Below are positions 1-32,104 of a DNA stretch of 33,536 nucleotides, one piece after another. The stretch comes from Candidatus Woesearchaeota archaeon (GTDB taxonomy: Archaea; Nanobdellota; Nanobdellia; Woesearchaeales; UBA11716). The number at the start of each line of letters is the position of its first letter. Position 1 is the stretch's first letter. A program made the translations under genes and the position numbers. Below the pieces are notes generated by a model. That model was not told where the DNA came from and searched no databases. It saw only the letters and a program-made list of their open reading frames with translations. The stretch covers positions 1 to 33,536 of the forward strand of contig DUKR01000080.1 of assembly GCA_013329175.1 (NCBI GenBank), read 5' to 3'.

Positions 1-72
1 CAGACTTTTGCAAAGTTCTCTAATGTTTTCTGCTAGTATTCATCCTAATCGTGATGCGTAGGATGAGGGTTA

Positions 73-1194
73 TTAAACCTTCCTCAGCACATGGACGCTG
101 ACTGTCCCGCCAGCCCCGCCTATGTTCTGCGCAAGAGCAGTCTTTGGGTTAGCAACCTGCCTGTCGCCTGCTTCGCCCCTGAGCTGCTTGGTGAGCTCAT
201 ATATCTGGGCAAGGCCCGTTGCTGAGATGGGATGGCCCTTAGCCTTGAGGCCGCCGGAGGGATTGATGGGCAGTTTTCCGTCAAGGCAAAACGCGCCATC
301 GTCTATCGCATTGCAGGCATGGCCTTTCTTCGCAAAGCCTAAATCCTCGCTGGCAATCAGCTCGACAATGGTGAAGGCGTCATGAAGCTCAGCGACATCA
401 ACGTCGCAAGGCTCGATGCCTGCCATGGCATAAGCGTTTTTTGCTGCCTCAACGGTCGCGTCCCACGACGTGTTGCTGTCGCGCTCAAAGGGGGAGATGT
501 AGTCGGTGCAGAGGTCTGAGCCTGCCACCCTGATGTCGGTCTTGTCTTTAGAGAGGACTGCCGCTGCTGCGCCGTCGACAGATACTGAGCAGTCAAACAT
601 CCGCAGGGGAGAGCAAACCATCGGAGAATCCCGTATCTGCTCAAGCGTTACTTTCTTCTGATAAAAGCGCGCCTTTGGGTTCAGAAATGCGTTATCGTGG
701 TTCTTGAGAGCAATTTTGGCAAGGTGCTCCGTGGTTGATTGCGGGTATGCGCTCATGTACTCCTGGGCAATCAGCGCGTTTTGGGCGGGAAAATTAAGGC
801 CTTCGTCCTGCTCCCATTTTGATTCCGCTGCCATCATGAACTCTTCAGTGATGCTTTCTGTCTTACAGGTCATGAGCTTCTCTGCTCCAATGACAAGGAC
901 GTGGTCAAACTCCTGCTGCTGAGCGAACCAGAACCCTGCGCCAGAGCTCCCGCAGGCAGCGGGCACCCTGATGATGGGCTTGTTGGTGCTGAAGACTGAT
1001 GCGAGCATGCTTGCAAAGTGGCGCTGCTTCTCTATGGAGAAGAACCACTCGATTGAGGAACAAACTATGGCATCTATCTGTGCAAACTTCAGGTCTGCGT
1101 CCTGCAGCGCTTCAAGGGCTGCCTCGTGGGCAAGCTGGTGGGAGAGCTTATCAGAAACTCCAAACTTAGTCATGCCAACGCCTTTGATGTACAT
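73..1194 (-). CDS. Thiolase-superfamily condensing enzyme (archaeal/SCP-x-type acetyl-CoA C-acyltransferase-like), paralog 1
   Basis: 373-aa ORF. It has an N-terminal GVGMTKFG motif, the nucleophile-Cys loop VPAACGSSGAGFW, and the C-terminal thiolase motifs NPSGGLKAKGHPISATG and NIGGAGGT. Only 9 nt separate it from the upstream gene. Confidence 0.85.
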   Translation of the reverse strand: MYIKGVGMTKFGVSDKLSHQLAHEAALEALQDADLKFAQIDAIVCSSIEWFFSIEKQRHFASMLASVFSTNKPIIRVPAACGSSGAGFWFAQQQEFDHVLVIGAEKLMTCKTESITEEFMMAAESKWEQDEGLNFPAQNALIAQEYMSAYPQSTTEHLAKIALKNHDNAFLNPKARFYQKKVTLEQIRDSPMVCSPLRMFDCSVSVDGAAAAVLSKDKTDIRVAGSDLCTDYISPFERDSNTSWDATVEAAKNAYAMAGIEPCDVDVAELHDAFTIVELIASEDLGFAKKGHACNAIDDGAFCLDGKLPINPSGGLKAKGHPISATGLAQIYELTKQLRGEAGDRQVANPKTALAQNIGGAGGTVSVHVLRKV

Positions 1195-1203
1195 GATGGC
1201 CGC

Positions 1204-2340
1204 CTACTCCTGTATCAGTTTTGAGCCTATGGGCTGCTTGATGTCCCTTCGAATCGCGTCAAGCTCGTTTCCTACAAACGAGATGTTCTCAATCTCATAC
1301 GTCCCGTAGCCAAGAGTGCCTGCAAGCTCAACATAAGGCAGCTTCTTTAGGCAGAGCGCCTCCTGTATCGCAGTATCATGGACTACGGGATTGCGGGCTG
1401 CAAAGATGAGGTTGAAAAACCCTGGCTCTCCGTTCATTGCCGGGCCGTTTCCCTGCATGCCGATGGATGCGTCGCCAACGGTAATGAATGGAGGGAACAC
1501 ATGGGGGAATGTTGCCAATGCCAATCCCGCTTTCAGGGGATTTTTGGCAAGCTCATCAAAGGCCTTCTTTGAGAGGAATCTGGTGAGATTCTCAAACGCC
1601 CCGTCAATCCCCAACACGGTGTCGGTCTTGATAACCGGGAGGTTGATGAGAAGGCCAGTTTCGTAGACAGCTTTTGCTATCTCGAAGGTGAACTCGCGCT
1701 CTTTCTTTACAATGAATCCGCCCTTCGCAAGGTCAGCATAGTTCACGCCAAATTCAGTGATGATTTCGGCGATGCCTGATTTCTCAACTGCCTTCTCCAG
1801 AGGCATGAAGAAGCTCTGCTCGGCAATGGTGATGTTCTTTGGCTCTGCCCCTTTTCGTACGAGATAGCTGATGACTGCCCTGATGACTTGGGGATTGGTG
1901 CATATGCCCAAATAGGGGTAGCCAGGGATGCTGAGGTTGGGCTTGAGGAGGATTTTTTGCTTTTTGCTGACTGCAAGACCGCCGATGAGTTCCAGCGCTT
2001 CATCAACAGCCTCGCCAACGTCATATTTTATCCTGACTGCCGCTATGGCATTGTCGCCTGCGTTGGGAATGTCTTCGTAAACGTCACCTAGGCAATAGTC
2101 TTTGATGGTCTTCTTGGGCATGCGGTGGCCGTGCTCATCTTCTAAGATGAGGACATTGTAGGGGACAATGGGGTGGAGGGGATTTGGGATGTGGACCTTT
2201 GTTATGCCGATGACTTTTGTCTTTGTCCCGATGACTTTCTTTATATTCCCGCCGTCATGGATGCATCTCTCAATGGGATGGATATACTTCTTTCCTGAAC
2301 TCTCTCCTACCCAGCGTATGACTCGCACCATTACATTCAC
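1204..2340 (-). CDS. Fusion protein: N-terminal DUF35-like OB fold (acyl-CoA-associated, no zinc ribbon) plus C-terminal DUF362 domain
   Basis: 378-aa ORF. Residues ~35-75 (GTKTKVIGITKVHIPNPLHPIVPYNVLILEDEHGHRM) match the DUF35 OB-fold pattern G-x-G-x-[LV]...T-x-V...PY-x-[LV]-x-[LI]-x-E-[LD]-E-x-G-x-R. The rest carries DUF362-like motifs (ILLKPNLS..., TNPQVIRAVISYLVRKGA, GMQGNGPAMNGEP). It lies between the two thiolase genes with 9-nt gaps on both sides. Confidence 0.6.
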   Translation of the reverse strand: MNVMVRVIRWVGESSGKKYIHPIERCIHDGGNIKKVIGTKTKVIGITKVHIPNPLHPIVPYNVLILEDEHGHRMPKKTIKDYCLGDVYEDIPNAGDNAIAAVRIKYDVGEAVDEALELIGGLAVSKKQKILLKPNLSIPGYPYLGICTNPQVIRAVISYLVRKGAEPKNITIAEQSFFMPLEKAVEKSGIAEIITEFGVNYADLAKGGFIVKKEREFTFEIAKAVYETGLLINLPVIKTDTVLGIDGAFENLTRFLSKKAFDELAKNPLKAGLALATFPHVFPPFITVGDASIGMQGNGPAMNGEPGFFNLIFAARNPVVHDTAIQEALCLKKLPYVELAGTLGYGTYEIENISFVGNELDAIRRDIKQPIGSKLIQE

Positions 2341-2349
2341 CTTTCCTTA

Positions 2350-3492
2350 TCAGCCTGCCACTTTCCTGAAGATGTGGACGATTGAGGTTCCGCCTGCTCC
2401 GCCGACGTTATGGGCAAGGCCAAGCGCTGCACCCTTCACCTGGCGCTCGCCGCACCTGCCCCTGAGCTGGTCAACAATCTCGACTATCTGGGCAACGCCA
2501 GTTGGCGAGATGGGATGGCCTCTTGCCTTGAGGCCGCCAGAAGTATTGGTTGGCATCCTGCCGCCAAGGTTTATTACGCCGCTTCTGACAAAGTCTTTGC
2601 CTTCTCCTTTTTTGCAAAAACCTAAATCTTCATAGGCTATAAGCTCGACGATACTGAAGGCATCGTGAATCTCAGCGACGCTGATGTCACCTTGCTTCAC
2701 TTTGGCCTGCGCAAAGGCTTCTTTTCCTGCCTCAATGGTTGAGCTCCAGACACACATATCCTCCCGCTCAAAGGGAGCGATGTGGTCTGTTGCAAGGCCG
2801 CTTCCAATGACTTCTACTTCCGAAGGTGCGGTTGATATGACTGCTGCTGCTGCTCCGTTGACAGTGAGGGAGCAGTCGTAGAGGGTGAATGGCTCGGCAA
2901 TCATGGGGCCGTTCTTGATTTTTTCCATGGAGACTGGCTTTTTGTAGAAAGGAGCTTTGGGGTTCAATGCGCCGTTGCCATGGTTCTTGAATGCTATCAG
3001 CTCAAGGTCTTCATGGGTAGTGCCAAAGCGGGTGAAGTGCTGCTGGGCAACAAGGGCATTGGCCGCAGGAAATATCAATCCTTCGTCCTGCTCCCATGCA
3101 TTCTCAGACGCGTTCATGATCTCCCTGGTCACCAGTGGCGTGGTTGATGAAGCAACCTTGTCAACGCCGACTATCAGCACAGTCTTGTACCTGAGGCGAA
3201 GGCCTGACCAGAAGGCCGCTCCGCCCCCGCCGCAGACCGCAGGGACGCGGATGATGGGCATCTTTCTCTTGAGCACTGATGACAGGACTGAAGGGAAGTG
3301 GCGCTGGCGGTCATCGTTCATTTTGGTGTCGGAATTGGAAACAACGATTGCGTCAATCTCATCCATGCTTTTCTTTGCGTCTTTCAGGGCAAGTGCGATT
3401 GCCTCATGGGCCATGACTGCCATGGGGATGGAGTCCAGGCTGAACTTAGTCATGCCTACGCCATGCACGAATCGTTTTGGACAGCCTGCCAT
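2350..3492 (-). CDS. Thiolase-superfamily condensing enzyme, paralog 2
   Basis: 380-aa ORF with GVGMTKFS, the Cys loop VPAVCGGGGAAFW, and the motifs TSGGLKARGHPISPTG and NVGGAGGT. It is collinear with the 73-1194 product and shares short stretches of roughly 80% nucleotide identity with it (e.g. 215-260 vs 2497-2545). Confidence 0.85.
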   Translation of the reverse strand: MAGCPKRFVHGVGMTKFSLDSIPMAVMAHEAIALALKDAKKSMDEIDAIVVSNSDTKMNDDRQRHFPSVLSSVLKRKMPIIRVPAVCGGGGAAFWSGLRLRYKTVLIVGVDKVASSTTPLVTREIMNASENAWEQDEGLIFPAANALVAQQHFTRFGTTHEDLELIAFKNHGNGALNPKAPFYKKPVSMEKIKNGPMIAEPFTLYDCSLTVNGAAAAVISTAPSEVEVIGSGLATDHIAPFEREDMCVWSSTIEAGKEAFAQAKVKQGDISVAEIHDAFSIVELIAYEDLGFCKKGEGKDFVRSGVINLGGRMPTNTSGGLKARGHPISPTGVAQIVEIVDQLRGRCGERQVKGAALGLAHNVGGAGGTSIVHIFRKVAG

Positions 3493-3524
3493 TGCACATC
3501 ACTGCTGATTTATTATCACTTCTG

Positions 3525-4022
3525 CTACTTAGCTTTTGAGAACTTTGACCTGAATTCCTGCCTATCCACAATTGCAAGCATGATGGTCGCTTCGGCAGCC
3601 CTGATGCCGCTATGGGAGGCTGATGCGTTGAGCATTGCTCCCTTCTCGTCCATCCCAACAAGCTCTATTTCGAAGGTGAGCTTTGCGCCAGGGAAAGTAG
3701 GAGCCTTGAACCTGGCATCTTTGATCTTGTGTGCAAGGACGTCTTTTGTCTCGTGGTTGTCGAGATTGTACCTGACAAGAAGGGTAGCTGCCTGGCCCAT
3801 GCCTTCCACAATCAATGCCCCTGGCATGATGGGAAATCCCCTGAAGTGGCCTTTGAAGTATGACTCGTTGGGGCTTACCGTTTTTTCTGCCACCAGCTTT
3901 TTCTTGTCAAGCATGGTGACTCTGTCAATGAAGAGGAAAGGCTCATCGTAAGGGATTATCTTCCTAATCGCTTCCTTGTCAAGGCTTCCGTCACTTTTTT
4001 TGAGGTTGTCAATGGATTGCAT
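3525..4022 (-). CDS. FabZ/FabA-like hotdog-fold beta-hydroxyacyl dehydratase
   Basis: 165-aa ORF with the FabZ signature YFKGHFRGFPIMPGALIVEGMGQ (catalytic His and Glu in their usual context). A GAGG sits 7 nt upstream of the ATG on the minus strand. It is the first gene of the minus-strand operon. Confidence 0.75.
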   Translation of the reverse strand: MQSIDNLKKSDGSLDKEAIRKIIPYDEPFLFIDRVTMLDKKKLVAEKTVSPNESYFKGHFRGFPIMPGALIVEGMGQAATLLVRYNLDNHETKDVLAHKIKDARFKAPTFPGAKLTFEIELVGMDEKGAMLNASASHSGIRAAEATIMLAIVDRQEFRSKFSKAK

Positions 4023-4093
4023 AGTGCTGCCTCTGATGGGGGTTTTATCGTCGGTGCTTAACGATAGTTTCTTTTTAAATCATTCGGTTGGCG

Positions 4094-4165
4094 GTAATAG
4101 TTCACCTTTATGACGTTGCCTACCTCTTTCCTCCCGCAGGGCAGTTCAGGCTGGTGAACTATTAC
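4094..4165. promoter_or_regulatory. Perfect 13-bp inverted repeat (GTAATAGTTCACC / GGTGAACTATTAC) with a 46-nt spacer in a divergent intergenic region
   Basis: Read directly: 4094-4106 is the exact reverse complement of 4153-4165. The repeat lies between A/T-rich TATA-like elements at 4072-4080 (minus direction) and 4180-4187 (plus direction). Confidence 0.55.
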
Positions 4166-4179
4166 ACAAAACCATAATA

Positions 4180-4187
4180 ATTAAATA
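4180..4187 (+). promoter_or_regulatory. TATA-box-like element (ATTAAATA) about 30 nt upstream of the ATG at 4213
   Basis: The spacing from the element centre to the ATG is about 29.5 nt, the same as at the other candidate promoters in this window. Confidence 0.4.
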
Positions 4188-4212
4188 GAAAACGGGGAAA
4201 TTCCACCAATAT

Positions 4213-5708: not shown

Positions 5709-6048
5709 TTCTTTTTCTGTAAACAAGGAATATCCCAATCCCATAGAGAGCAACAGACAGCACCGCAATCGAGAGATAGATATTGTGAAACAGCCTGTCA
5801 ATAGTCCACAGCAATTGCGAATACACGACAAGACCTATGAACAGCGAAAAAAAGAGCGTTTCATCCCTTTCAATGGGCAAATGCGAGAAAAGCAGAAAAA
5901 AAGGGAGCAGGAAAAAAAGAAAAATGGCAATAAACGCCTTTGCCCCTGTCAAACCAAAGAAGAAAGAGGGAACAAGCAGGAAAAAAAAGATTCCAGCAAT
6001 AATGCTGATTCGGTTCATCTTCAGCTGCGAGATAAGATTGTCAGCCAT
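5695..6048 (-). CDS. Small Phe-rich integral membrane protein with about 4 TM segments
   Basis: Four hydrophobic segments of about 20 residues each (IIAGIFFFLLVPSFFFGLTG, FIAIFLFFLLPFFLLFSHL, LFFSLFIGLVVYSQLLWTI, IYLSIAVLSVALYGIGIFLVY). The ATG at 6048 overlaps the stop of the upstream GT-C gene by 8 nt (ATGGCTGA). Alternative ATGs are at 6093 and 6018. Confidence 0.55.
   Translation of the reverse strand: MADNLISQLKMNRISIIAGIFFFLLVPSFFFGLTGAKAFIAIFLFFLLPFFLLFSHLPIERDETLFFSLFIGLVVYSQLLWTIDRLFHNIYLSIAVLSVALYGIGIFLVYRKRTTGS
5709..5720 (+). terminator. Oligo-T tract (TTCTTTTTCTGT) directly after the UXS-like stop codon
   Basis: A T-rich run starts 1 nt after the TAG at 5706-5708. This resembles an archaeal-type oligo-T terminator. 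It lies inside the 3' end of the convergent small ORF. Confidence 0.3.
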
Positions 6049-7660
6049 AGCGATACACCCTGATAAGTTGAGTCTGGTAAACAATGCTTGCATTCTGCGC
6101 CGCCTGGCTTTCCAACTGCTGCAATTGCTGTATCTGATCAGCCCTTCCCATTGCGGCTAAATCCGAATAGTCAAAAGCGACATGGGTAAAGGTTGAGTTG
6201 ATAGGCTCCCACCCTTTAACCTCAGCAACCGTCTCATACCTGCCGATATGCTCGTACGACTGGGTTGCATAGTGCCTGCTCAATATCTGAATCCACCTCC
6301 ACTTGGGATAGGATATGGTGCCAAGGATATTCACTCCCTCAGCGGCTGGAACGTTTGATTCTATCCATGAAGCAAGCTCCATCTGCGCAGGAGTGATTCT
6401 GCTGATGCCGTCATAGGACTGCTCAAGTGTAGCATATGCCTGCATGCCCTGGGTTGAGATCACGACTGCAAGGAAAGCTATGGCAAGGGCATATGAGGCA
6501 ACCTGTTGGCCTCGCTTTGCAAGAGGGATGAATCTGGGAAGCGATGCAATGGCAACGCCCATGATGGCGTAAAAGAAGTACGGCTCTATCATCATGAACC
6601 GTGCAATCCTGTAATTGTCTGGAGTGGATAATCCAAAAAAAGGAAAGTGATACACAAGATACAGGGCAACCATTCCGCTCAACAGAAAATATTTCTTTGT
6701 TCCCTTGCTGAACAAAAGGAGGGCAATCCCCACCATAAGCAGTCCAATAGTCCAGTATCCAGGGTAACTCGTTGCATACTCGCTAAATGCCGGATTCAGG
6801 CCAAAGTTGTTTGCTGGCCTGTCAATCCAGGTGAACAGCGTAGCGACTGCCATAACCGATGGATTCTCTCCTGAGTCACCACCCAGGCCTGAAAAGTAGA
6901 TGGGATACATCATCCATGTGAGGAAAAAAAAGACGCCAAGCATAGCAAGATACTGCTTCCACAGGCTTGGCAATGCCGGCAGCTTCCTGTATGCAATGAA
7001 GAAGAATGCGATTACGATAAGGGAGTAGATGACAAGAAAGGCGGTCGCTGAGAAATGGGCAAGTGAAGAAGATGCAAGCAGGAGCATATACAGCCAGAGA
7101 TAGGCAAGGTGCTTTTTCTTCTCATCTCCATAGAATGCTGCCAGAGCCATGTACAGGGAATATGCAGTCAGGGGGATGAACACAAACGCAAAGGTGTTGT
7201 GCCTCTGCCCCCACAGGTAGGACATGATTTCCCTGAATGAGAACATAAGAGGGATAGCAGTAAGAATCGCTGGAAGAAACCCAAACAGCTTTCGCATGAC
7301 AACATACATAGAAATGCAGCCAAGAATGGACGTGAATGCTATGAACAGGAATACAGGAACTATCCGCTCACCACCAAAAATCTGCATCAGAGAATAATCA
7401 ATGTTGTACGCCGGAGGATACACAATCCCCCTCGGCCCAAGAAGTATGTTGTAGCCAGCATACCACCCTCCAAGCGATGGAGGGGTATCCCCTATGAGGT
7501 TCATGGTCCTGCCCAGGTAGGTGATGTGATCCCCATACGAGAATATGTAGGCACCGTCATGCTCTGAAAACGGCAGGTGATTGTCCTGCAGGGGGAGTGT
7601 CCAGAAAAAGAAGGAAACGGCAAACAAAATTCCAATGACAATCCAATCGCGATTATCCAT
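6041..7660 (-). CDS. Large polytopic membrane protein, GT-C-like glycosyltransferase (module A)
   Basis: 539-aa ORF with many hydrophobic segments over about 400 aa, followed by a C-terminal soluble domain of about 140 aa. An acidic first loop (SEHDGAY) follows TM1. I did not see the WWDYG oligosaccharyltransferase motif. Confidence 0.6.
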   Translation of the reverse strand: MDNRDWIVIGILFAVSFFFWTLPLQDNHLPFSEHDGAYIFSYGDHITYLGRTMNLIGDTPPSLGGWYAGYNILLGPRGIVYPPAYNIDYSLMQIFGGERIVPVFLFIAFTSILGCISMYVVMRKLFGFLPAILTAIPLMFSFREIMSYLWGQRHNTFAFVFIPLTAYSLYMALAAFYGDEKKKHLAYLWLYMLLLASSSLAHFSATAFLVIYSLIVIAFFFIAYRKLPALPSLWKQYLAMLGVFFFLTWMMYPIYFSGLGGDSGENPSVMAVATLFTWIDRPANNFGLNPAFSEYATSYPGYWTIGLLMVGIALLLFSKGTKKYFLLSGMVALYLVYHFPFFGLSTPDNYRIARFMMIEPYFFYAIMGVAIASLPRFIPLAKRGQQVASYALAIAFLAVVISTQGMQAYATLEQSYDGISRITPAQMELASWIESNVPAAEGVNILGTISYPKWRWIQILSRHYATQSYEHIGRYETVAEVKGWEPINSTFTHVAFDYSDLAAMGRADQIQQLQQLESQAAQNASIVYQTQLIRVYRYG

Positions 7661-8294
7661 TTTTCCTCAGGGAATAGACACGGTCAAGCCCGTAAAATCC
7701 CCAGTAAACAGCCGCAACCCGTAATCCTGCACCGTCTGCAGCCTTTTTAATGCTTTTCCTCCATGAATGGAAGTGCCAGAAAGCAGGAGCCATCTTAAGA
7801 TGCAGCAACTCAAGCCAACGTATGATAGGATAAGCAAGCATGTTTGGCGTGCTGATGATGATACTGCCCTGTGGCCTGAGCACCGACGAGACATTGCGAA
7901 GCACAGCGCATGGATTGTCAAAATACTCCCAATTCCCGACAAAAAGGGCATAATCATAAGGGCCATTCAGCGTGACTCCCTTCTCAACGTCGCAGAGAGC
8001 AAACCCACACGCCGCATGAGCAGACTGCGCATTCTTTGCTGCTATCTCTATCATTTTCCTGCTGTAGTCAACGCCATCACATGGCCTTCCATGCTTCGCA
8101 AGCCCAATGGAGTATTGTCCTGTTCCGCATCCGACGTCAAGCACGCGTGAACCCTCAGGAATGAGTGAGAGAAAAAAGGAGAATGTCTTTTTGAAGTAGT
8201 GCTTCACCCGCTGCTTGTCATAGTTTGTACTCTGGCTTTCGATGATATCCTTGTATCCCTCATTGCCCATGTGCTTAGGAAGCAGCAAAAGCAT
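7653..8294 (-). CDS. Class I SAM-dependent methyltransferase
   Basis: Motif I is VLDVGCGTGQYS. The 3' end overlaps the GT-C gene start by 8 nt. The internal ATG at 8270 (Met9) fits the TATA spacing better than the ATG at 8294. Confidence 0.8.
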   Translation of the reverse strand: MLLLLPKHMGNEGYKDIIESQSTNYDKQRVKHYFKKTFSFFLSLIPEGSRVLDVGCGTGQYSIGLAKHGRPCDGVDYSRKMIEIAAKNAQSAHAACGFALCDVEKGVTLNGPYDYALFVGNWEYFDNPCAVLRNVSSVLRPQGSIIISTPNMLAYPIIRWLELLHLKMAPAFWHFHSWRKSIKKAADGAGLRVAAVYWGFYGLDRVYSLRKNG

Positions 8295-8301
8295 TTAAAT
8301 A
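8294..8301. promoter_or_regulatory. Consensus-like archaeal TATA box TTTAAATA shared by divergent methyltransferase genes
   Basis: The element centre is 26.5 nt from the ATG at 8324 (plus strand) and 27.5 nt from the ATG at 8270 (minus strand). Confidence 0.5.
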
Positions 8302-8323
8302 CATTGCCAATGGAAAGTGTGCT

Positions 8324-9025
8324 ATGAATCATCTTAAAGGCATTAAGGGAGACAAAGAATTTGAGCATTCTGTAAAGGCAGCCTACAAGGAGTTTGCAGA
8401 AGAGCCTATGGATGAGAACTACAGGCATCCTGTTATAGGACTCATCTCAGGAGGGCGTGTGAGGCGGCTTCTGAGGGAAGCAGGTAACCTCAAAGGAAAA
8501 AGCCTGCTTGAAGTCGGCTGTGAAGCAGGATATGTATCCATCCAGTTCAAAAAAAAAGGCGCTACAGTCACTGCCTTTGACGTCTGCGAGCCCGCACTTG
8601 AGCGGTTCAGGCAGAAAAAAGAAAGCGCAGGGATTACTATTTTTGCTGCCGCTGCACAGAAGATTCCCCTGAAGGATAATTCCTTTGACGTTGTTGTCTG
8701 CACTGAGGTCATTGAGCACATGCCTAAGGTTGAGCAATGCATCGGGGAGATGGCAAGGGTGCTTAAGCAGGGGGGAAAGCTCTACATTACATTCCCGAAT
8801 GAAAAGCTGAGAAAGCCATTTTATCCCCTTGCACAGGCAATGGGCATCAACACAAGCATTGAAGATGAAGTGACGCTGTATGACTATAAATTCTCTTATA
8901 TTCTTAGCCTGTGCAGAAAGCACTTAAGGGTTGAAAAGAAGTTCTCCTGGCCGTTTTTTCTTCCGCTGACACGGTTTATTGTGGCAAAGAAAGAGGCCAT
9001 GACAGTAATCACTGCGCCTTCTTGA
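8324..9025 (+). CDS. Class I SAM-dependent methyltransferase (Methyltransf_11-like)
   Basis: Motif I is LLEVGCEAGYVS, followed by FDVVVCTEVIEHMP and LKQGGKLYITFPN. The 3' end overlaps the convergent reductase gene by 17 nt. Confidence 0.8.
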   Translation: MNHLKGIKGDKEFEHSVKAAYKEFAEEPMDENYRHPVIGLISGGRVRRLLREAGNLKGKSLLEVGCEAGYVSIQFKKKGATVTAFDVCEPALERFRQKKESAGITIFAAAAQKIPLKDNSFDVVVCTEVIEHMPKVEQCIGEMARVLKQGGKLYITFPNEKLRKPFYPLAQAMGINTSIEDEVTLYDYKFSYILSLCRKHLRVEKKFSWPFFLPLTRFIVAKKEAMTVITAPS

Positions 9026-9980
9026 TCTCCCCTCTCCAGTACTCAAGGAGGTCCTTAAGCGTATCCTTAAAGGCGATGGCAGGCTTCCACCCAGTCAGAT
9101 TCCTGAACTTTGAGTCATCTAGCTTTGGCCTTTCTGCATCAACGGGCCTAAACAGCTTAGGGTCAACTTCCACCTTGACTTTCACCTTGAGCGTTGAAAG
9201 CGAAAGCAGCGTGTCAAGCAGCTCATGGATACTCAGGGTTGCTTCGCCGCAGATGTTGTAGGCTTCTCCAGGCTCTCCTTTCTTTACAAGAAGACAGTAG
9301 GCCTTCACTGCATCCCTGATGTCAAGAAACGTCCGGATGGATGCAAGGTTTCCTACACGCATCACAGGCTCCTGAATGCCTGCTTCAATCTCAGCTATCT
9401 GCTTGGCAAAGGATGACTCCACAAAATGCTCATTGCGGCGAGGGCCTGTATGGGTGAGAATGCGCGTAGTTACGCTATGGATATGATAAGTATGGAAATA
9501 CTGGCGGATAAGAGCCTCACCTGCAATTTTACTTGCTGCATACATGGTGAGCGGGTCAGGCAGGGTTTCCTCGGTTATGATTTCAGAGGTGGGATGGCCA
9601 TAGACATCAGCTGACGACGCAAAATGGATTATTGGGTGAAGATTAGCAAGCCTGACTGACTCAAGCAGGTTCAGCGTTCCAAGGGCATTGACATTGAAGG
9701 TCTGCAATGGCTGCATAGTTCCTGCTGGAACAAAGGACTGCGCCGCAAGATGGAAGATGATATCAGGCTTTGCCTCTTCTATCGCCCTTCGGACTGAAAG
9801 AAAATCGCACAGCTCGCAGTCAACAAATGCAATTCCTTTCTTGATGTGCCTGATGTTATCCATAGGGCTGCGCCACCTTTTTGCCCCATAGATAGCAATA
9901 TCCCTTTCCTTAAGGAGAAGCTCAACAAGATGGCTTGCGACAAAGCCAGTGACGCCGGTGATGAATATCCGTTGTCCCAT
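9009..9980 (-). CDS. Extended SDR, GDP-4-dehydro-6-deoxy-D-mannose reductase (Rmd)-like
   Basis: 323-aa ORF with the N-terminus MGQRIFITGVTGFVASHL, YAASKIAGE (YxxxK), and the GDP-sugar SDR-like HTGPRR. It is the last gene of the gmd operon. Confidence 0.6.
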   Translation of the reverse strand: MGQRIFITGVTGFVASHLVELLLKERDIAIYGAKRWRSPMDNIRHIKKGIAFVDCELCDFLSVRRAIEEAKPDIIFHLAAQSFVPAGTMQPLQTFNVNALGTLNLLESVRLANLHPIIHFASSADVYGHPTSEIITEETLPDPLTMYAASKIAGEALIRQYFHTYHIHSVTTRILTHTGPRRNEHFVESSFAKQIAEIEAGIQEPVMRVGNLASIRTFLDIRDAVKAYCLLVKKGEPGEAYNICGEATLSIHELLDTLLSLSTLKVKVKVEVDPKLFRPVDAERPKLDDSKFRNLTGWKPAIAFKDTLKDLLEYWRGEIKKAQ

Positions 9981-9986
9981 TGGCTG

Positions 9987-11099
9987 CTACCCCTTAAACT
10001 GCCTGATGACTTTGATGACATGGTTGACTTCCTCTTCACTGCACCCTCCAAGGGGAAGCTCTATTGATTTGTTTCCAACCTCGTCTGCGCCAGGCAGCGA
10101 GACATCCCTGAACAGCGTGCGGTGATACGGCTGCCGGTGGGCAGGAAGCCAGCATATCCTGATGTCAATGTCATGCTTTATAAGAAATTTTGCAAGGCTG
10201 TCTCTATTTGTATCCTGTACCATAATGCCAAAGAACAGATAGGGGTGCATGGAGACATATGAGGGAACTTCCTGAAAGCCATAGTCGCCTCCAAGTGCTT
10301 CTTTGTAAAGGGCAACGAGCCTGTTGCGGTGGGCCACCTGAGAGTCTACTTTTTTCAGCTGCGCAAGACCAATTGCTGACTGGATGTCAGTGATGCGAAA
10401 GTTCAGCCCATAGCGGGCATAGTCGTAGTGCAGGTTCTCTTTTGAGTTATAAGGGGCACTCATTCCGTGGTTTCGGATTGATTTGCACCTTTTTGCAATC
10501 TCTGCTGAGGGGGTAAGCACGCATCCTCCTTCAATGGTTTGCAGTGATTTTGCAATGTGAAAGCTAAATGTGCTGGTATGGTCAAAGTAGCCCATAGGCT
10601 TTCCCTTATACGCTCCGCCTATGGCAGCAGCAGCATCCTCTATGAGCGCCAAGTCATGCTCCTGCGCAAAACGCTCAAAGGAGTCAACGTCAACAGGCAT
10701 CCCTGCAACATCAACAGGCATGATTGCTTTTGTAGCATCACTCAGATGCTCTTGCATAAGTTCAGGTGTGGTGTTCCACATACCTGGATCAGAATCAACA
10801 AGTATGGGGGTAGCTCCGACAGAGAACACAGAGTTGATGGAGGCGATGAAGGTCAGGGACGGGACAAGAACCTCGTCTCCTGCCCCTATGCCATGCGCAA
10901 GAAGCGCAGTAGTTAATGCAGCAGTTCCTGTTGAGACACAGACAACGTGCTTTGCGCCGGTATACTCTGAAAGCCCTTTTTCAAACTCTTCGGTGACTTT
11001 TCCCTGCGTCACCCAGCCGCTTTTGATGACTTCGATTGCAGCCTGTTTTTCCGCATTTCCAAAATCAGGTCGTGCCCATGGAACTCTCATGAGGGTCAT
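9987..11099 (-). CDS. DegT/DnrJ/EryC1/StrS-family PLP sugar aminotransferase (GDP-perosamine synthase-like or ArnB-like)
   Basis: 370-aa ORF with FEKGLSEYTGAKHVVCVSTGTAAL and the PLP-lysine context FSFHIAKSLQTIEGG. An ATGA overlap links it to the upstream GT2 gene. Confidence 0.8.
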   Translation of the reverse strand: MTLMRVPWARPDFGNAEKQAAIEVIKSGWVTQGKVTEEFEKGLSEYTGAKHVVCVSTGTAALTTALLAHGIGAGDEVLVPSLTFIASINSVFSVGATPILVDSDPGMWNTTPELMQEHLSDATKAIMPVDVAGMPVDVDSFERFAQEHDLALIEDAAAAIGGAYKGKPMGYFDHTSTFSFHIAKSLQTIEGGCVLTPSAEIAKRCKSIRNHGMSAPYNSKENLHYDYARYGLNFRITDIQSAIGLAQLKKVDSQVAHRNRLVALYKEALGGDYGFQEVPSYVSMHPYLFFGIMVQDTNRDSLAKFLIKHDIDIRICWLPAHRQPYHRTLFRDVSLPGADEVGNKSIELPLGGCSEEEVNHVIKVIRQFKG

Positions 11100-15013: not shown

Positions 15014-16657
15014 TTAGTATATTCCAGGCAACCAGTTACATGGTGCAAGTATTTCTTTAGCGTTTATCGGCTCAGAAAGATTGTAAAGTATCCTGTTCCC
15101 CTGAATGGTAGCAACGCCGTAAGAGATTGAATTGTTAGCCATAAATTTCTCCAGCCCGTCAGCTATATGCATAGTATAAGGGTCAAAGATGTATGCTGTA
15201 TGCTCATCGTTAGTCATAAGGGATTCTATGGGCCCATACCAGTTAGGGCAGGGGCAAAGGTCACATGAAGCGATGACCTTTTTCTGGGTATAAAACAGTA
15301 TTTTCCATTTAAGGGGATGGGAGGAGTACACTGAATGGATGGAATTATTTTCCAAAAAGTCGATAACGCCAGCAATGGACTCTTTGTCCTTTTCTGCGTA
15401 GGATTGTGCCAGTGGCGGGACTGTTCCAATCAACAGAAGTATAAGGATGCCCATCCCGAGAAAGACTCCCTGCCTGCTATGCTGCACAATAAGTGCGATG
15501 GCATAGGAGATAAGGAGAATAAAAAAAGGGAAGACTGGCGAAAAATGCTTCACGTCTGTCCATCCAGAAAGCATAAATATCATGGCCCAGAAGTATACAA
15601 ACAGGACAAGGATGAGCTCTTTTCTTGCTGTAGGAAACGCAATGGCACTTTCTGAAAAAGGGTTAAGCGAGGAAATAAACGGGAGGAAGTACCTTAGGTT
15701 CAGGATAGAAATGAGCCCAAAAAGCAGGAGAGCCAGGAAATAATACGTCCACGAGTTAAATAGGAGATGGAGGGTGACGGTAAAAAAAGAGGTTATGCTA
15801 AACTGGTTTCGAAGGTTCTTCTCAAAGATGTGGCAGGGGTCAATAATCCGGTCCCCATAGGCCATCTGGCCAGGCAAAAGGTTGTGTTCGCATGCAAATC
15901 TATGGATGGCGTTTCCAGCCATAAAATGCTTAATGTTTGAAAAATTGTGGGTTGCATTGTAATATATCAAGGGGCTGATGGAGACAAGCAGCAGCAGGAC
16001 AAACACCCTAAAGGTTTTCCTTGTATAAAACCGTTTGTCAGAAAGATACCAAATAAACACAAAAAACAGCAAATAAGCAAGAGCATACTCCAGATTCCAC
16101 CATGCTATGCCTACGGTCAGCCCCATAAGGCCTGCTTTAAGCATTGTTCCTTTACTTTTGACAAAAATGTCGTAAGTAAAGATGCCCATCAGCAGAAAGA
16201 AAAAAAGGGTTTCAGGATAGCCTGAAAGGCCCATTACTGAAAGCCTGGTCATGAAGGGGGAGGAAAATGTAAAGAGGGTAAGGGCAAATACTGCAGTGAG
16301 CTTCCCGAAGTGTCTGCTTGCAAAATAATACAGCAAAAAAAAAGTGGCACATGATACCATTACACTTACTAATTTAAAAGATATATCTGATATGCCGAAG
16401 AGTAAAAAGGTAAGAACCGCAAGGTAAGATTCGATGGCTGCTCCGCCAATGTAAGGCTCTCCGTAGATGAAATAGTGAAGTTTTCCCTCTTTAAACGTAT
16501 CCATGGCCATCACCGCAATGGATGCAGGGTCCCCTGCCAGATGCTGCTGTGATGTAAAGAGGAGAGCTAATCTTGTTACTAAAAAAATACCAAAGAGGAA
16601 AGCCACAGCAGCATGAAATCCCGTCGCCCGATGGCCTGGTCGCTTAGCGTGAGGCAT
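15014..16657 (-). CDS. GT-C-fold membrane glycosyltransferase, ArnT/PMT (GT39/GT83)-like (module B)
   Basis: 547-aa polytopic ORF. The first loop has acidic residues (HLAGDPASIAVMAMDTFKEG), followed by a PMT_2-like segment (KLVSVMVSCATFFLLYYFASRHFGKLTAVFALTLFTFSSPFM). The C-terminal soluble domain is about 130 aa. Confidence 0.7.
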   Translation of the reverse strand: MPHAKRPGHRATGFHAAVAFLFGIFLVTRLALLFTSQQHLAGDPASIAVMAMDTFKEGKLHYFIYGEPYIGGAAIESYLAVLTFLLFGISDISFKLVSVMVSCATFFLLYYFASRHFGKLTAVFALTLFTFSSPFMTRLSVMGLSGYPETLFFFLLMGIFTYDIFVKSKGTMLKAGLMGLTVGIAWWNLEYALAYLLFFVFIWYLSDKRFYTRKTFRVFVLLLLVSISPLIYYNATHNFSNIKHFMAGNAIHRFACEHNLLPGQMAYGDRIIDPCHIFEKNLRNQFSITSFFTVTLHLLFNSWTYYFLALLLFGLISILNLRYFLPFISSLNPFSESAIAFPTARKELILVLFVYFWAMIFMLSGWTDVKHFSPVFPFFILLISYAIALIVQHSRQGVFLGMGILILLLIGTVPPLAQSYAEKDKESIAGVIDFLENNSIHSVYSSHPLKWKILFYTQKKVIASCDLCPCPNWYGPIESLMTNDEHTAYIFDPYTMHIADGLEKFMANNSISYGVATIQGNRILYNLSEPINAKEILAPCNWLPGIY

Positions 16658-23379: not shown

Positions 23380-24147
23380 ATGACTAAAAAAAAATTTAAA
23401 CAGGGGCTTTTTTTCATACCGCACATGCACAAGGGCAAGAGCGTATCAGTTGTTTTCCCTGCATTTAACGAGCAGGAAGGGATTGGTGCAGCAGTCAGGG
23501 AGTTCTTTGCAACAGGCATTGTGGATGAGATTGTAGTCGTTGATAACAATTCAAAAGATAACACCTCCAACAAGGCAACAGAGGCAGGCGCAAGGGTTGT
23601 TCTTGAAAAGAGGCAGGGCTACGGATGGGCCAGCAGGAGAGCCCTGCACGAAGCAAAAGGAGACATCATCATTATCGCTGAGCCAGACGGCACATTTGCA
23701 GGGAAAGATATCTTCAAGCTTCTTGCCTACGCCCAAGACTTTGATATTATCTTTGGGACAAGGACATCAAAGGAAAGCATATGGGATGGAGCCAACATGA
23801 ACCTGTTCCTCAGGTATGGCAACGTCTTTGTCGCAAAGCTTATGGAATACCTCTTCAACGGCCCCTGCCTCACTGACGTAGGATGCACTATGAAATTATT
23901 CAGGAGGGAAGCAATCGAAAGGATAAAGCCAAAATTTACTGTTGGGGGATCACACTTCTCCCCAGAGCTGATGATATTGGCGATAACAAGCAAAGCTAAG
24001 TGCATAGAGATTCCTCTGAATTATCGCAAAAGGGTTGGAGCCTCAAAGATAACAGGGGATCTCTCAAAAGCTATCAGGCTTGGGTTCGTCATGATTGGCC
24101 TTATCCTTGCATACAGGCTTGGATTCAAAAAGGCCGCTGGAAAATGA
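23380..24147 (+). CDS. GT2 polyprenyl-phosphate sugar synthase-like glycosyltransferase with a C-terminal TM helix (module C)
   Basis: Motifs VSVVFPAFNEQEGI, IVVVDNNSKDNT and IIIIAEPDGTF. The C-terminal helix is IRLGFVMIGLILAYRLGF. The stop overlaps the start of the next gene (ATGA at 24144-24147). Confidence 0.7.
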   Translation: MTKKKFKQGLFFIPHMHKGKSVSVVFPAFNEQEGIGAAVREFFATGIVDEIVVVDNNSKDNTSNKATEAGARVVLEKRQGYGWASRRALHEAKGDIIIIAEPDGTFAGKDIFKLLAYAQDFDIIFGTRTSKESIWDGANMNLFLRYGNVFVAKLMEYLFNGPCLTDVGCTMKLFRREAIERIKPKFTVGGSHFSPELMILAITSKAKCIEIPLNYRKRVGASKITGDLSKAIRLGFVMIGLILAYRLGFKKAAGK

Positions 24148-25817
24148 AAAGGCAAGCCTACCTTGCAATAAGCCTAATTCTTCTTGGGATTCTATTGCGT
24201 GTATCATCTCTGGATAATGTTCCCTATCTTGATGAAGCAGCCTGGGCATATACTGCAACTGACACCAGCATGCAGACTTATGCCTCAACTATCCCACACC
24301 CCCCCCTTGCAATTCTGTTGTTCAAGGCTCCCATGCTCATTGCTCCCTACAGCGATGTCATGCTGAGGATGGTGCCGCTTTTCCTTGGGTTAGCTACTCT
24401 TGCTGTAGTGTTCCTGATAGCAAATATACTGTATGGAAAAAGCGCTGCATACTGGTCACTGGTGATAATGAGCCTCTCGTTTTGGCACGTTCTTGCCTCA
24501 GTGCAGGTTGACGTTGACGGCGCTATTCTTGCTTTCCTGTTTTCCTGCGCGGTTTATTGCTATCTTCTCTTCGAAAAAACAACAAAAAAGCAATTCCTTT
24601 ATGCCACTGGGGTATTTCTCGGTCTCTGCATCTTTGCTAAGCTGCCAGGGATTCTTGGCTCTGTGACTATCGGGCTGTATGTCATAGCAAAGAAAAGAAA
24701 GCTGCGAAGCATTATCATTGAGGGAGGGGTTCTGCTGTCAATTGTTGCTGCAATGTTTGCCCCCTATGTTCTCTACCTTAAGGCAACTAATCCAGAGGCA
24801 TTCCAGTTCGTGTTTGCCCATAATGCCGGCTATTACACAGGGGGAGTATCTCTCCTTCCCCTTGCTTATCTGCTGTTGTGGGGTACGCCTCTTCTGGCAG
24901 GGTTATCCATGCTCGCTACACTAAGGCTTGCCAAGAATGACATGCTTCCTCTGCTCTGGATTTTCGTGTGTGTCGCATTTTACTTAGTGATGGGTGTTCC
25001 CGGACTTTCTCCGTTTGACAGGTACCTGATGGTTATCATCCCTCCCCTTGCAATGCTCTCCGGAAAGTTTCTTTCATCACTACAGCCAGCAAAGAGGCAC
25101 CTGCCGCATATCATTACTTCATTTTTGATTGGATTGGCTATTCTTACCGCTTTCCAGTTTCAGTCAACTATCGTCAGGCATTCTCTGGAAGATTACGCCA
25201 AGCGGCTGCTTTCCCCTGACTGGATGTTCTACCTCCCGATTACAGGTTCAAGCGGCCCGACAATGCTTATTGGAATAGGGGGGATTATCGTTGTCAGCGC
25301 GCTTGCATACCTATTCATGCTTTTTTCCCTCTTCTCAAAAAAGAAGGGGTTGAAAACAGGCCTTATTGCAGTAAGCCTTGGAATGGCTCTTGCAATCAAC
25401 TTGTTCCTTGCAGGAGAGCTTGCATTCCCGCTTTTATCGCCGGATATATCGGCAATGACCAATGACGCAATAAGCACAGTGAAAAGCAGCAGCCTGAGCC
25501 TTCCACTCTATACCAATGCCCTTGGCATCTCATGGCATGCAAGGCTTAATGACCCCTATTTTGCAAGGGGGGGCATCATAACAGTATTGCCTGACGCTCG
25601 CAGATACGAGACAGAAAGCAGCGATGAGAGCATCAGGTCAATAGCTGAAGGAATGCTGGCAGAAGGCGGGACATTAATTCACATAGATTACCCGCCGTCA
25701 CATACAGCTATTGCCTTGTGGGATGCCCTTGCTGACTGCAATGTGATGAAGGAGTACACCTATAAGGAAAGGCGCATGGGGTATGTTATCACTTGCCCTG
25801 AGCAGGACAACATTTAA
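24144..25817 (+). CDS. GT-C-fold membrane glycosyltransferase, ArnT/PMT-like (module C)
   Basis: The start is placed at ATG 24144 (MKRQAYLAISLILLGILL), which overlaps the GT2 stop. The first loop contains PYLDEAAWAY (DE motif), followed by a PMT_2-like segment (LRMVPLFLGLATLAVVFLIANILYGKSAAYW). The protein is polytopic and has a C-terminal soluble domain. Confidence 0.7.
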   Translation: MKRQAYLAISLILLGILLRVSSLDNVPYLDEAAWAYTATDTSMQTYASTIPHPPLAILLFKAPMLIAPYSDVMLRMVPLFLGLATLAVVFLIANILYGKSAAYWSLVIMSLSFWHVLASVQVDVDGAILAFLFSCAVYCYLLFEKTTKKQFLYATGVFLGLCIFAKLPGILGSVTIGLYVIAKKRKLRSIIIEGGVLLSIVAAMFAPYVLYLKATNPEAFQFVFAHNAGYYTGGVSLLPLAYLLLWGTPLLAGLSMLATLRLAKNDMLPLLWIFVCVAFYLVMGVPGLSPFDRYLMVIIPPLAMLSGKFLSSLQPAKRHLPHIITSFLIGLAILTAFQFQSTIVRHSLEDYAKRLLSPDWMFYLPITGSSGPTMLIGIGGIIVVSALAYLFMLFSLFSKKKGLKTGLIAVSLGMALAINLFLAGELAFPLLSPDISAMTNDAISTVKSSSLSLPLYTNALGISWHARLNDPYFARGGIITVLPDARRYETESSDESIRSIAEGMLAEGGTLIHIDYPPSHTAIALWDALADCNVMKEYTYKERRMGYVITCPEQDNI

Positions 25818-26975: not shown

Positions 26976-27512
26976 ATGAAAAAAAAAGAAAGCGCCATGC
27001 CAAGAAAGCTTAATATCGGCTGCGGGTTTGACCTGCGAGCTGGCTTTGTGAATGCGGACATCAGAGAGCCATGCGATGTAAAATTGGACATGTCAAAAAA
27101 GCCATACCCATTTAAGGATAACAGCTTTGATTACATCCTTATGAACAATGTCCTTGAGCACATTGAAACGCCCCTCATGGTGATTGAAGAGATTCACAGG
27201 ATTTGCTCGCCTGCAGGGACAATTGAGATTATTGTTCCATTTTATAACAGCCCCAATGCGTACAATGACATAACCCATGTCCGCTTCTTTCACAGGGACA
27301 CGCTGAAAGATTTTGATATCAACACGAAAGGAAAGCGGTACGAGGCATCACCAGTGAAGTTCCGGATAAAGACTGTGCTGCATCCTTCACTCTTCGGAAG
27401 GCTCATTCCTAAGCCGCTGCTCAATGTATGCGCAGTTACCATCGGAAATCTTGTTGCTGCAGTAACCTACAAGCTTACCCCTGTCAAGGATGAAAATTCT
27501 CCTAATGAATGA
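26976..27512 (+). CDS. Small class I SAM-dependent methyltransferase (Methyltransf_11-like)
   Basis: 178-aa ORF with LNIGCGFDLRAGFVNADI and FDYILMNNVLEHI. An alternative start is ATG 26997. The 3' end overlaps the next gene by 23 nt. Confidence 0.7.
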   Translation: MKKKESAMPRKLNIGCGFDLRAGFVNADIREPCDVKLDMSKKPYPFKDNSFDYILMNNVLEHIETPLMVIEEIHRICSPAGTIEIIVPFYNSPNAYNDITHVRFFHRDTLKDFDINTKGKRYEASPVKFRIKTVLHPSLFGRLIPKPLLNVCAVTIGNLVAAVTYKLTPVKDENSPNE

Positions 27513-30980: not shown

Positions 30981-32104
30981 TGTATGAACTTCATGAACGC
31001 TTGTTTATTCTGGATTGGTGTGGTTGTCGGCCTTCCAAGATCTTTGCGGGCTCCCTTGTTCACCCGTATTTCCAGAAGTACAGGCCCTTGCTCATCCCGC
31101 AAGGTTGCCATTGCCTGCTGTATCTCCTCTCTTGTCTTGGCAGCATGTGCATCCCTGTACCCGTTTGCTTTTGCAATTACTGGAAGGTCTATGCCAAACC
31201 CTGTAGTAGGCTGGCCGCCTACTGAATCGTGAGAGCCGTTGTTGAAGACGATATGCTTAAAATTTTTTGGAGCAAGCTGACCTGATATTGCAAGCGAGCC
31301 CATGTGCATGATGACTGCGCCGTCCCCATCAAAGCAGAACACCTGCCTATCTGGCTTCTGCAACGCTATGCCAAGGGCAATTGATGACGAGTGTCCCATG
31401 CTCCCTACTGTCAAAAAATCACGGGAATGATTTTGCCTGAGCTCTTCACGGTATTCAAAAAGCTCTCTGGACGTCTTGCCTGTCGTTGAGACGACGATAT
31501 CGGTATCATTGAGTGCATCAACCACAAGCTTCAGTGCATCTTCCCTACTGAGTTCATAGCTAGTCTTTGCCTTACTCTGGAGCTTGTATTCGGCAAAGGT
31601 ATTCTTTTTTACCACAAGGGCATAGGGAGCACTTCTTTTTTTCATCCCATCTACGGCCTTCTCAACGCTTACTTTTGCAGTATCACTGTCTTCAGGAAGT
31701 ATTTCATAGGGTATTCCAAGGGTTTCCAGAAGTTCAAGGGTTATTTTCCCCTGCTTGACATGCTGTGGCTCATCCTTTACCCCTGGCTCCCCCCTCCATC
31801 CGATTATCAGCAACACGGGGATACTGTAGACGTCAGGGTCAACCAGAGACATCAGCGGGTTCACTGCATTGCCCTCTCCTGAATTCTGCATGTACACAAC
31901 CCCTATCTTTCCTGTTGCAAGATAGTAGCCTGCGGCAAGGGCTATTGCGTTACCTTCATTTGCCGTGATGATGTTGTCCTTTTTGTCGGCATTGTCTGCT
32001 ATGTAGGCGCAAAAATCCTTAAGCAATGAGTCAGGGACTCCAGCAAAGAAGGTGAGGTTGTGGCTTTTCAGAACAGCATAGAAAACATCGCAGGGTATCA
32101 TCAT
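30977..32104 (-). CDS. ppd: Phosphonopyruvate decarboxylase (ThDP-dependent)
   Basis: 375-aa ORF with the ThDP motif [18 protein letters not shown]...[11 protein letters not shown]. Its size and single-chain architecture are typical of Ppd. ATGA overlaps occur at both ends. Confidence 0.8.

Follow-up and report, generated by a model that had tools for sequence, protein, structure and literature searches.

The window analysed here is a stretch of 33,536 nt from the forward strand of contig DUKR01000080.1 (assembly GCA_013329175.1) of a Candidatus Woesearchaeota archaeon, a member of the DPANN whose contigs derive from groundwater metagenomes. At its left end lie four co-directional minus-strand open reading frames (ORFs), in the order FabZ-like dehydratase, thiolase A (ThlA), a DUF35-like/DUF362 fusion protein and thiolase B (ThlB) (Table 1). 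An initial annotation, made from the sequence without database searches, had described two paralogous thiolases with the Cys loop, the GHP and the glycine motif, flanking a protein with a DUF35-type oligonucleotide/oligosaccharide-binding (OB) fold at its N-terminus and led by a FabZ-type hotdog dehydratase with intact His/Glu motifs; these identifications are borne out by the profile, alignment and structure comparisons given below. The operon probably specifies the core enzymes, for condensation and dehydration, of a module for fatty-acid synthesis or chain elongation that depends on CoA, is independent of acyl carrier protein (ACP) and is specific to Woesearchaeota/Nanoarchaeota.

The intergenic gaps of the ORFs as listed are 9, 9 and 32 nt, counted from the ThlB end to the FabZ-like gene, as initially annotated, with one change of start site. 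The most likely start codon of the fusion gene is the ATG at 2331 and not the listed GTG, because the resulting 375-aa product exists in the database (as the exact protein P0001, on 22 contigs) and the 378-aa GTG-start version had no match in an exact-sequence database look-up. This ATG is preceded by GGAAAGGTGA, a ribosome-binding-like motif, and its use would make the gap between the fusion and thiolase A genes 18 nt. An A/T-rich TTTAAAAA box, read directly from the sequence, precedes the ATG of the FabZ-like gene by about 50 nt, and the divergent intergenic region that separates this gene from a plus-strand cupin gene is presumed to be the promoter region. The operon ends after ThlB, since the next genes on longer contigs of the same organism (EamA, SecDF) are on the opposite strand.

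Table 1. Coordinates of the operon and its upstream region, numbered from the first nucleotide of the window
Feature	Position	Strand	Remarks
FabZ-type hotdog (R)-3-hydroxyacyl-thioester dehydratase	3525..4022	minus	165 aa; first gene; PF07977, NCBIfam FabZ
Thiolase A, archaeal/SCP2-type ketothiolase	2350..3492	minus	380 aa; Cys + GHP, HDAF not HDCF
Fusion protein, ORF as listed (GTG start)	1204-2340	minus	378 aa
DUF35-like N-terminal domain of fusion, ~aa 1-100	2032..2331	minus	hhalign, Foldseek; no Pfam match
DUF362 (LarA-clan fold) domain of fusion, ~aa 105-375 + stop codon	1204..2019	minus	PF04015
Thiolase B, paralog of thiolase A	73..1194	minus	373 aa; last gene; intact Cys/GHP, HDAF
Divergent intergenic region, FabZ-like gene vs plus-strand cupin gene	4023..4212		presumed promoter region

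Both thiolases matched the Pfam families Thiolase_C_1 (E 1e-46 and 1e-48) and Thiolase_N, and the best NCBIfam family of both was PRK06064, of the archaeal SCP-x type. They are 50% identical to each other and form two separate lineages within the window's clade. The possibility that one of them is in fact an HMG-CoA synthase (HMGCS), raised at the outset as the observation that would make this an ordinary mevalonate-entry complex, found no support: neither thiolase matched an HMGCS family in Pfam or NCBIfam, and a genuine HMGCS is encoded separately in relatives. Among solved structures they are closest to 7YVY, 4YZO and the thiolase of 6ESQ, which are the best PDB matches of thiolase A, together with SCP2-thiolases and BbsB; 6ESQ is the Methanothermococcus thermolithotrophicus thiolase/HMGCS/DUF35 complex, and its thiolase was matched at E 1e-50 to 1e-56.

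Both thiolases have a nucleophilic Cys as well as the GHP and C-terminal N-I/V-G-G-A-G-G motifs; all three features are conserved across ~70 orthologs and are kept by both copies in essentially all species. The SCP2-type catalytic set (Cys, HDCF, GHP) is nevertheless incomplete, in that HDAF replaces HDCF in both paralogs and in 68 of the 69 flanking orthologs. HDCF is present in the 6ESQ thiolase, in the SCP2-type thiolase 6HSJ and in the canonical thiolase of an outlier locus (L053), and its cysteine serves as acid/base towards the enolate of acetyl-CoA (PMC12329534). HDAF is also carried by 7YVY, deposited as an acetyl-CoA acetyltransferase; our literature searches found nothing on whether HDAF thiolases, 7YVY included, are active.

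The first gene product matched PF07977 at E 6.6e-25 and MaoC at E 0.007 only, placing the dehydratase in the FabZ/FabA type and not the MaoC type. It scored 111.9 bits on the NCBIfam FabZ model, just under the cutoff of 113, and 111.1 bits on TIGR01750 (cutoff 155). The best PDB matches were FabZ structures, with which His59 and Glu73 align at the catalytic His and Glu positions, and the top matches among 651 homologs were all from Woesearchaeota/Nanoarchaeota. The protein thus shares its hotdog family and catalytic residues with FabZ of bacterial type II fatty-acid synthesis (FAS). Unlike the bacterial enzyme, it is encoded with thiolases in an archaeon and has no ACP, ketoacyl synthase (KAS) or FabD gene nearby, and for these reasons its substrate is presumed to be a CoA thioester.

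The N-terminal domain of the fusion protein gave no DUF35 match in Pfam, even at E≤10, and none in PDB sequence-hidden Markov model searches, whether a single sequence, the family consensus or the family profile was used. When aligned by hhalign with genuine DUF35 proteins of the same lineage, on the other hand, it matched with a probability of 94% (E 1.4e-7), zinc ribbon and OB fold being in register. An AlphaFold model of the fusion protein had a pLDDT of 92.9 and a pTM of 0.91. Foldseek matched its N-terminal domain to ChsH2-DUF35, BbsA, the 6ESQ DUF35 protein, PhlB, MucB and Trf (targets 6OK1, 7PXP, 6ESQ, 5M3K, 9VBT and 6HTJ; target-normalised TM ~0.4-0.53) and its C-terminal domain to LarA and malate racemases (E 3.7e-7). 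The hhalign and AlphaFold/Foldseek matches indicate that the middle protein is a DUF35-DUF362 fusion. Most homologs read RWVCxKCNKKWIYPIEKCIYC in this domain, which is a zinc ribbon of the CxxC...CxxC form, and have an OB-like segment after it. Three of the four ribbon cysteines are lost in the window copy (2260-2331), which has GSCD vs CCCC in 65 of 87 homologs; partial or complete loss is seen in the other 22, and the model of the window protein is confident (pLDDT above 90) despite it. The DUF35-like domain is presumed to be a thiolase-docking scaffold.

The other solved complexes of DUF35 with thiolase-superfamily enzymes are all among these structural and sequence matches, which raises the possibility that the operon encodes a specialised carbon-carbon bond enzyme of the PhlABC/MucABC or Ltp2/BbsAB kind, i.e., an acyltransferase, an aldolase or an aromatic-acid thiolase. 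BbsAB, Ltp2-ChsH2(DUF35) and Sal-Shy do combine DUF35 with an SCP2-type thiolase-fold enzyme, and hotdog hydratases are partners in the Ltp2 and Sal systems as well. However, the nucleophilic Cys present here is missing from the Ltp2/Sal aldolases (PMC12329534), and these systems act on aromatic or steroid CoA esters, whereas no aromatic or steroid pathway genes lie near the operon. None of them has two thiolase paralogs, DUF362 or FabZ, and ThlA and ThlB reach only 141-161 bits against the BbsB-family cutoff of 750 (NCBIfam). Unlike PhlABC/MucABC, moreover, the operon has no KAS III/HMGCS-like subunit, and specifically no KAS III-like PhlA/MucA gene. A specialised enzyme of this kind therefore seems highly improbable.

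The C-terminal domain of the fusion protein belongs to the DUF362 family by a wide margin (PF04015, E 9e-28; 98.1 bits vs a cutoff of 24; model positions 1-198 of 200), and its modelled structure can be laid over the LarA and malate racemase folds. DUF362 and LarA share a clan (PMC11770544; Pfam clan CL0471). Bacterial matches to the fusion protein cover the DUF362 part only. The invariants of 29 bacterial DUF362 proteins are KTH, LKN.KG, K...H and EG.GP, plus a C-terminal Cys cluster. Here the His of KTH, the Lys of LKN, the K..H pair and the Glu of EG.GP are replaced (H237 variable, and Asp in the window; K247 to E; K258 and H262 lost; E293 to Q) and the Cys cluster is missing. Fusion forms of 488 aa lack the DUF362 cysteines, and the 375-aa clade of the window lacks the entire C-terminal domain. 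Within the FabZ-operon family the domain is well conserved, with a mean column identity of 52%. We infer that the apparently degenerate DUF362 domain is a structural or docking module and not the ancestral enzyme. Distant DUF35-DUF362 fusions of 465-467 aa, each beside a single thiolase gene (L051, 7998-9401; L052, 858-2255; one of them in Iainarchaeum), still have the canonical bacterial residues, with a CSGC...C...C cluster at the C-terminus, and appear to represent the fusion in its ancestral state. The idea that DUF362 supplies the missing enoyl reductase through LarA-like hydride chemistry was rated unlikely, because the bacterial invariants and Cys cluster are lost and the C-terminal part is deleted in the window's clade. 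Clustering of 30 bacterial DUF362 gene neighbourhoods gave a heterogeneous picture that was uninformative as to function.

Almost all named homologs of these proteins belong to Candidatus Woesearchaeota or Nanoarchaeota. When one genome was scanned for each species, 48 loci were found that encode relatives of the fusion protein at 32-66% identity. They are labelled Woesearchaeota, Nanoarchaeota, Nanoarchaeia or generic Methanosarcinales, apart from one Iainarchaeum and one unclassified archaeon; the generic Methanosarcinales labels look doubtful. The order FabZ-Thl-fusion-Thl on one strand occurs in 35 of the 48 loci, which is all 35 of the informative ones, i.e., those on long enough contigs. 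Of the other 13, ten are truncated where their contigs end, and the last three are distant outliers in which the DUF362 gene has no more than one thiolase gene beside it. Because the order is kept in every informative related locus, the arrangement is far beyond chance; conservation of gene order in relatives was one of the points on which the initial interpretation had been staked.

To assess the genomic context in these relatives, all ORFs around the operon were clustered, and representatives were compared with the Pfam and NCBIfam models. The most constant neighbours point to biosynthesis. An accC-type biotin carboxylase gene lies divergently upstream of FabZ in 31 of the 48 loci, with BirA in 27 and carboxyltransferase and biotin carboxyl carrier protein genes in 14 each, and a FabG-like short-chain dehydrogenase/reductase (SDR) gene is present in 31, where it mostly comes immediately after ThlB. 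Recurring neighbours include a YbgC/FadM-type thioesterase (14 loci), two tandem PlsC-like acyltransferases (11) and GpsA (15); BioY occurs in three. GpsA in Woesearchaeota and PlsC in DPANN have been noted earlier (PMC6431249). No credible ACP was found by tblastn and motif search in the window or in ~8-10 kb windows at the Woesearchaeal loci, the sole weak match (E 0.11) being in the outlier L053, and neither the window nor the ~8-kb flanks of related loci in Woesearchaeota yielded a KAS or ketoacyl-synthase gene. Likewise, FabG, FabI and HMGCS genes are absent from the 33,536-nt window, as had been reported for ACP, KAS and these three enzymes in the initial annotation.

Smaller subsets of the loci have neighbours of another kind. 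An AcrC/Bcd-like acyl-CoA dehydrogenase (ACAD) is encoded in eight loci, with electron-transfer flavoprotein (ETF) beta in five and ETF alpha in four, and crotonase and a family III CoA-transferase occur in four loci each. In 8-9 species a 2-oxoacid:ferredoxin oxidoreductase (alpha, beta and gamma), sometimes with extra genes, is inserted within the operon, lying between the fusion gene and the second thiolase gene in L021-L024, L027, L041 and L048; L011 and L013 also have an insertion. These enzymes, beside or inside the operon, would suit a fermentative reverse beta-oxidation of the butyrate or short-chain-acid type, or beta-oxidation itself, in which acetyl-CoA and acetoacetyl-CoA are interconverted for redox or energy purposes and not for lipids. 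The description of Woesearchaeota as anaerobic fermenters (PMC5994134) is in keeping with such a role. We nevertheless consider it quite unlikely: ACAD/ETF genes are confined to 8 of the 48 loci, whereas acetyl-CoA carboxylase (ACC)/BirA and FabG-like genes are the most constant neighbours and PlsC-like and GpsA genes recur, and FabZ and FabG are (R)-specific enzymes of the synthesis type.

An HMGCS gene, together with genes for a thiolase-like protein and a DUF35 protein, directly follows ThlB in L012 and L086 and lies further downstream in L042 and L050. A representative HMGCS from the relatives scored 511 bits on PRK04262 (cutoff 244). Its partner thiolase-like proteins (L012, 4634-5755; L042, 12436-13590; L050, 13676-14842; L086, 13324-14445) lack both the nucleophilic Cys (e.g., GGTDIAG, GGEDAAG) and the HDCF cysteine, and each is apparently a 'dead' thiolase of a mevalonate-entry complex. 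As this partner is presumably inactive, acetoacetyl-CoA must come from elsewhere in those loci, and ThlA, ThlB and the fusion protein might supply it to the mevalonate pathway in place of the catalytic thiolase of the thiolase/HMGCS/DUF35 complex. The operon does resemble the 6ESQ complex in thiolase subfamily, in DUF35 fold and in a three-gene logic of thiolase-superfamily enzyme, DUF35 and thiolase-superfamily enzyme. It differs in that the second enzyme is a thiolase paralog and not HMGCS, in having HDAF where 6ESQ has HDCF, and in the existence of a separate canonical HMGCS/thiolase-like/DUF35 trio in relatives. Furthermore, apart from L086, an adjacent HMGCS gene occurs in no more than 4 of the 48 genome-scan loci, and mevalonate supply leaves unexplained the strict linkage to FabZ-like and FabG-like genes and the presence of ACC, thioesterase, PlsC and GpsA genes. 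As the main function it is distinctly improbable; it could be an additional role.

The window itself has a different context from that of most relatives. Its operon adjoins a large glycan island encoding a DegT aminotransferase, sugar-nucleotide SDRs, glycosyltransferases and methyltransferases. This adjacency is found only in this species (L001-L006), while ~40 other species have the ACC/FabG/lipid context. The closest relative (L085, 70% identity) already has thioesterase, BirA and biotin carboxylase genes upstream of the operon, and the glycan adjacency is therefore a recent rearrangement. The G+C content of the operon (positions 1-4000, 0.515-0.54) vs that of the island (4001-33536, 0.43-0.50) is consistent with the island being a variable or acquired part. 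The juxtaposition had suggested, initially and as a more speculative option, that the operon makes a short hydroxyacyl or enoyl group for decorating the aminosugars or glycans encoded next door. That suggestion did not hold up well, since the adjacency is peculiar to this genome, the G+C contents differ, and the window contains no acyl-CoA N- or O-acyltransferase for sugars; the chance of such a role now appears very slight.

Taken together, the conserved synteny with ACC/BirA, FabG-like, thioesterase and lipid genes and the absence of ACP support CoA-level, ACP-independent elongation, the role first suggested for a DUF35/thiolase/dehydratase module here, and a characterised system in Sulfolobus, discussed below, provides an analogue. 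In the cycle that we envisage, ThlA and ThlB, both catalytically intact, would carry out Claisen condensation on acyl-CoA while docked on the DUF35-like domain, as in every solved complex of DUF35 with thiolase-superfamily enzymes. The fused DUF362 domain may act as a platform on which the FabG-like and FabZ-like enzymes assemble, so that intermediates are channelled. A FabG-like ketoacyl-CoA reductase, whose gene is downstream of ThlB in relatives and assumed to be elsewhere in this genome, would form (R)-3-hydroxyacyl-CoA, which the FabZ-like hotdog enzyme would dehydrate to enoyl-CoA. Reduction of the enoyl-CoA could fall, as relatives suggest, to a Bcd/AcrC-type ACAD with ETF or to a medium-chain dehydrogenase/reductase (MDR) enzyme, and the product might be released by a YbgC-type thioesterase or transferred to PlsC-like acyltransferases that use glycerol-3-phosphate made by GpsA.

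Recruitment of the ketoreductase by the scaffold would fit, as weak evidence from one lineage, the gene fusion in L041, where a 727-aa ORF (7989-10172) comprises DUF35-like and DUF362 domains, a C-terminal extension and a FabG-like SDR; a 726-aa protein with the same DUF35-like/DUF362/SDR fusion (P0241) is found on two further contigs. Relatedly, in the clade with fusion proteins of ~488 aa, it is the FabG-like gene that separates the fusion gene from the second thiolase gene.

Several points weigh against a biosynthetic, CoA-dependent module. The ACAD/ETF, crotonase and CoA-transferase neighbours fit degradation or fermentation equally well, and the FabZ-like protein scores as an ACP-type FabZ. 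The comparisons above show the domain identities, the catalytic residues, the gene order and the context in relatives; the ThlA/ThlB/fusion heterocomplex, the choice of substrate, CoA and not ACP as carrier, the biosynthetic direction and lipids as the end use are inferred. The absence of ACP applies to windows of ~8-10 kb, not to whole genomes. In the window, the operon has a glycan island beside it in place of any reductase, ACC or acyltransferase gene, and completeness of the pathway in this organism is accordingly an assumption drawn from relatives. Finally, Woesearchaeota are generally regarded as lipid-auxotrophic symbionts.

The linkage to ACC bears on which extender unit the thiolases might use. 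Decarboxylative condensation of acyl-CoA with malonyl-CoA would be permitted by the HDAF motif and the linked ACC, given that no other enzyme consuming malonyl-CoA is encoded nearby. ThlA and ThlB, fed by ACC, would then form with the scaffold, FabZ and FabG a hitherto undescribed ACP-free, malonyl-CoA-driven FAS that supplies bacterial-type ester lipids, via PlsC and GpsA, in DPANN archaea. The HDAF of 7YVY counts against this idea in view of the deposition of that protein as an acetyl-CoA acetyltransferase, and we regard the malonyl-CoA scheme as a tentative and on balance unlikely extension of the ACP-independent elongation proposed above.

The closest functional precedent is the FAS of Sulfolobus acidocaldarius, which consists of the ketothiolase Saci_1121 and DUF35 protein Saci_1120, the SDR Saci_1104, the MaoC dehydratase Saci_1085 and the MDR enoyl-CoA reductase Saci_1115 (Schmerling et al., bioRxiv 10.1101/2024.07.05.601840). 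The ketothiolase/DUF35 pair binds the SDR reductase and the hotdog dehydratase, and the reconstituted pathway makes fatty acyl-CoA without ACP; the same study considers malonyl-CoA use unlikely, holds that archaea have no FabZ/FabA hotdog dehydratases and mentions neither DPANN nor DUF362 (bioRxiv 10.1101/2024.07.05.601840). A thiolase-based, ACP-independent archaeal fatty-acid pathway had been proposed by Lombard and colleagues (PMC3533463). As in Sulfolobus, archaeal thiolases with a nucleophilic Cys are coupled genetically to a DUF35 module, which both of them flank here; the partners are a FabG-family SDR (in relatives) and a hotdog dehydratase, there is no ACP, and the intermediates would be CoA thioesters. 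The locus L086, which lacks FabZ, even carries a MaoC dehydratase and an MDR reductase, i.e., the Sulfolobus enzyme types, beside the module, along with a PlsC-like gene.

The differences from Sulfolobus are nonetheless considerable. Two thiolase paralogs, both without the HDCF cysteine, flank the DUF35 gene, and the DUF35 domain is too divergent for Pfam models and is fused to a degenerate DUF362 domain. The dehydratase is of the FabZ type and not MaoC, the operon is in close linkage with ACC and BirA genes in relatives, and the enoyl reductase, where seen in relatives, is mostly a Bcd/AcrC-type ACAD with ETF. The SDR ketoacyl-CoA reductase gene is near the operon in relatives and not in the window, and the lineage is DPANN. 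The system is thus best read, from this comparison, as a Woesearchaeal variant of DUF35-scaffolded, ACP-independent archaeal FAS and not as a new category. This qualifies the initial view that the arrangement had not been described: literature searches (DUF362; Woesearchaeota/DPANN with thiolase, fatty acid or ACC) found no published description of a FabZ/thiolase/DUF35-DUF362/thiolase operon, but ACP-independent archaeal FAS with thiolase and DUF35 is already in print.

How archaea make fatty acids without ACP has been answered experimentally only recently, and only for Sulfolobus. The present operon, which dozens of species of Woesearchaeota share, would be a second solution with an architecture of its own. 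In relatives it is physically linked to ACC, and in a fair number of them also to genes for bacterial-type glycerol-3-phosphate acyl lipids. If it is functional, some DPANN archaea, usually assumed to be lipid scavengers, could make fatty acids and perhaps ester phospholipids, which bears on the 'lipid divide', and DUF362 would gain its first functional context. A functional operon would also offer a compact system of four to five proteins (Thl, Thl, scaffold, FabZ and FabG) for testing malonyl-CoA-driven elongation by thiolase-fold enzymes, a question that is relevant to engineered reverse beta-oxidation as well.

Some further observations concern the glycan island. At its far end (29844-33399, minus strand) is a phosphonate biosynthesis trio comprising a phosphoenolpyruvate mutase-cytidylyltransferase fusion of 432 aa, a thiamine pyrophosphate-dependent phosphonopyruvate-decarboxylase-like protein of 375 aa and an Fe-alcohol dehydrogenase of 378 aa, which suggests phosphonate-decorated glycans in a DPANN archaeon. 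Two minus-strand genes (6041-7660 and 15014-16657) encode proteins of 539 and 547 aa that have no or a sub-threshold Pfam match (PMT_2, E 5.5e-4); they look like polytopic membrane proteins and are possibly divergent GT-C glycosyltransferases or polymerases. A GT2 gene (23380-24147) and a PMT_2-type GT-C ORF (24000-25817) overlap by 148 nt as listed, and because of this overlap the GTG start of the PMT_2-type ORF is probably too early. A methyltransferase-like ORF of 178 aa (26976-27512) aligns with methyltransferase models over their C-terminal part only and may be a truncated gene.

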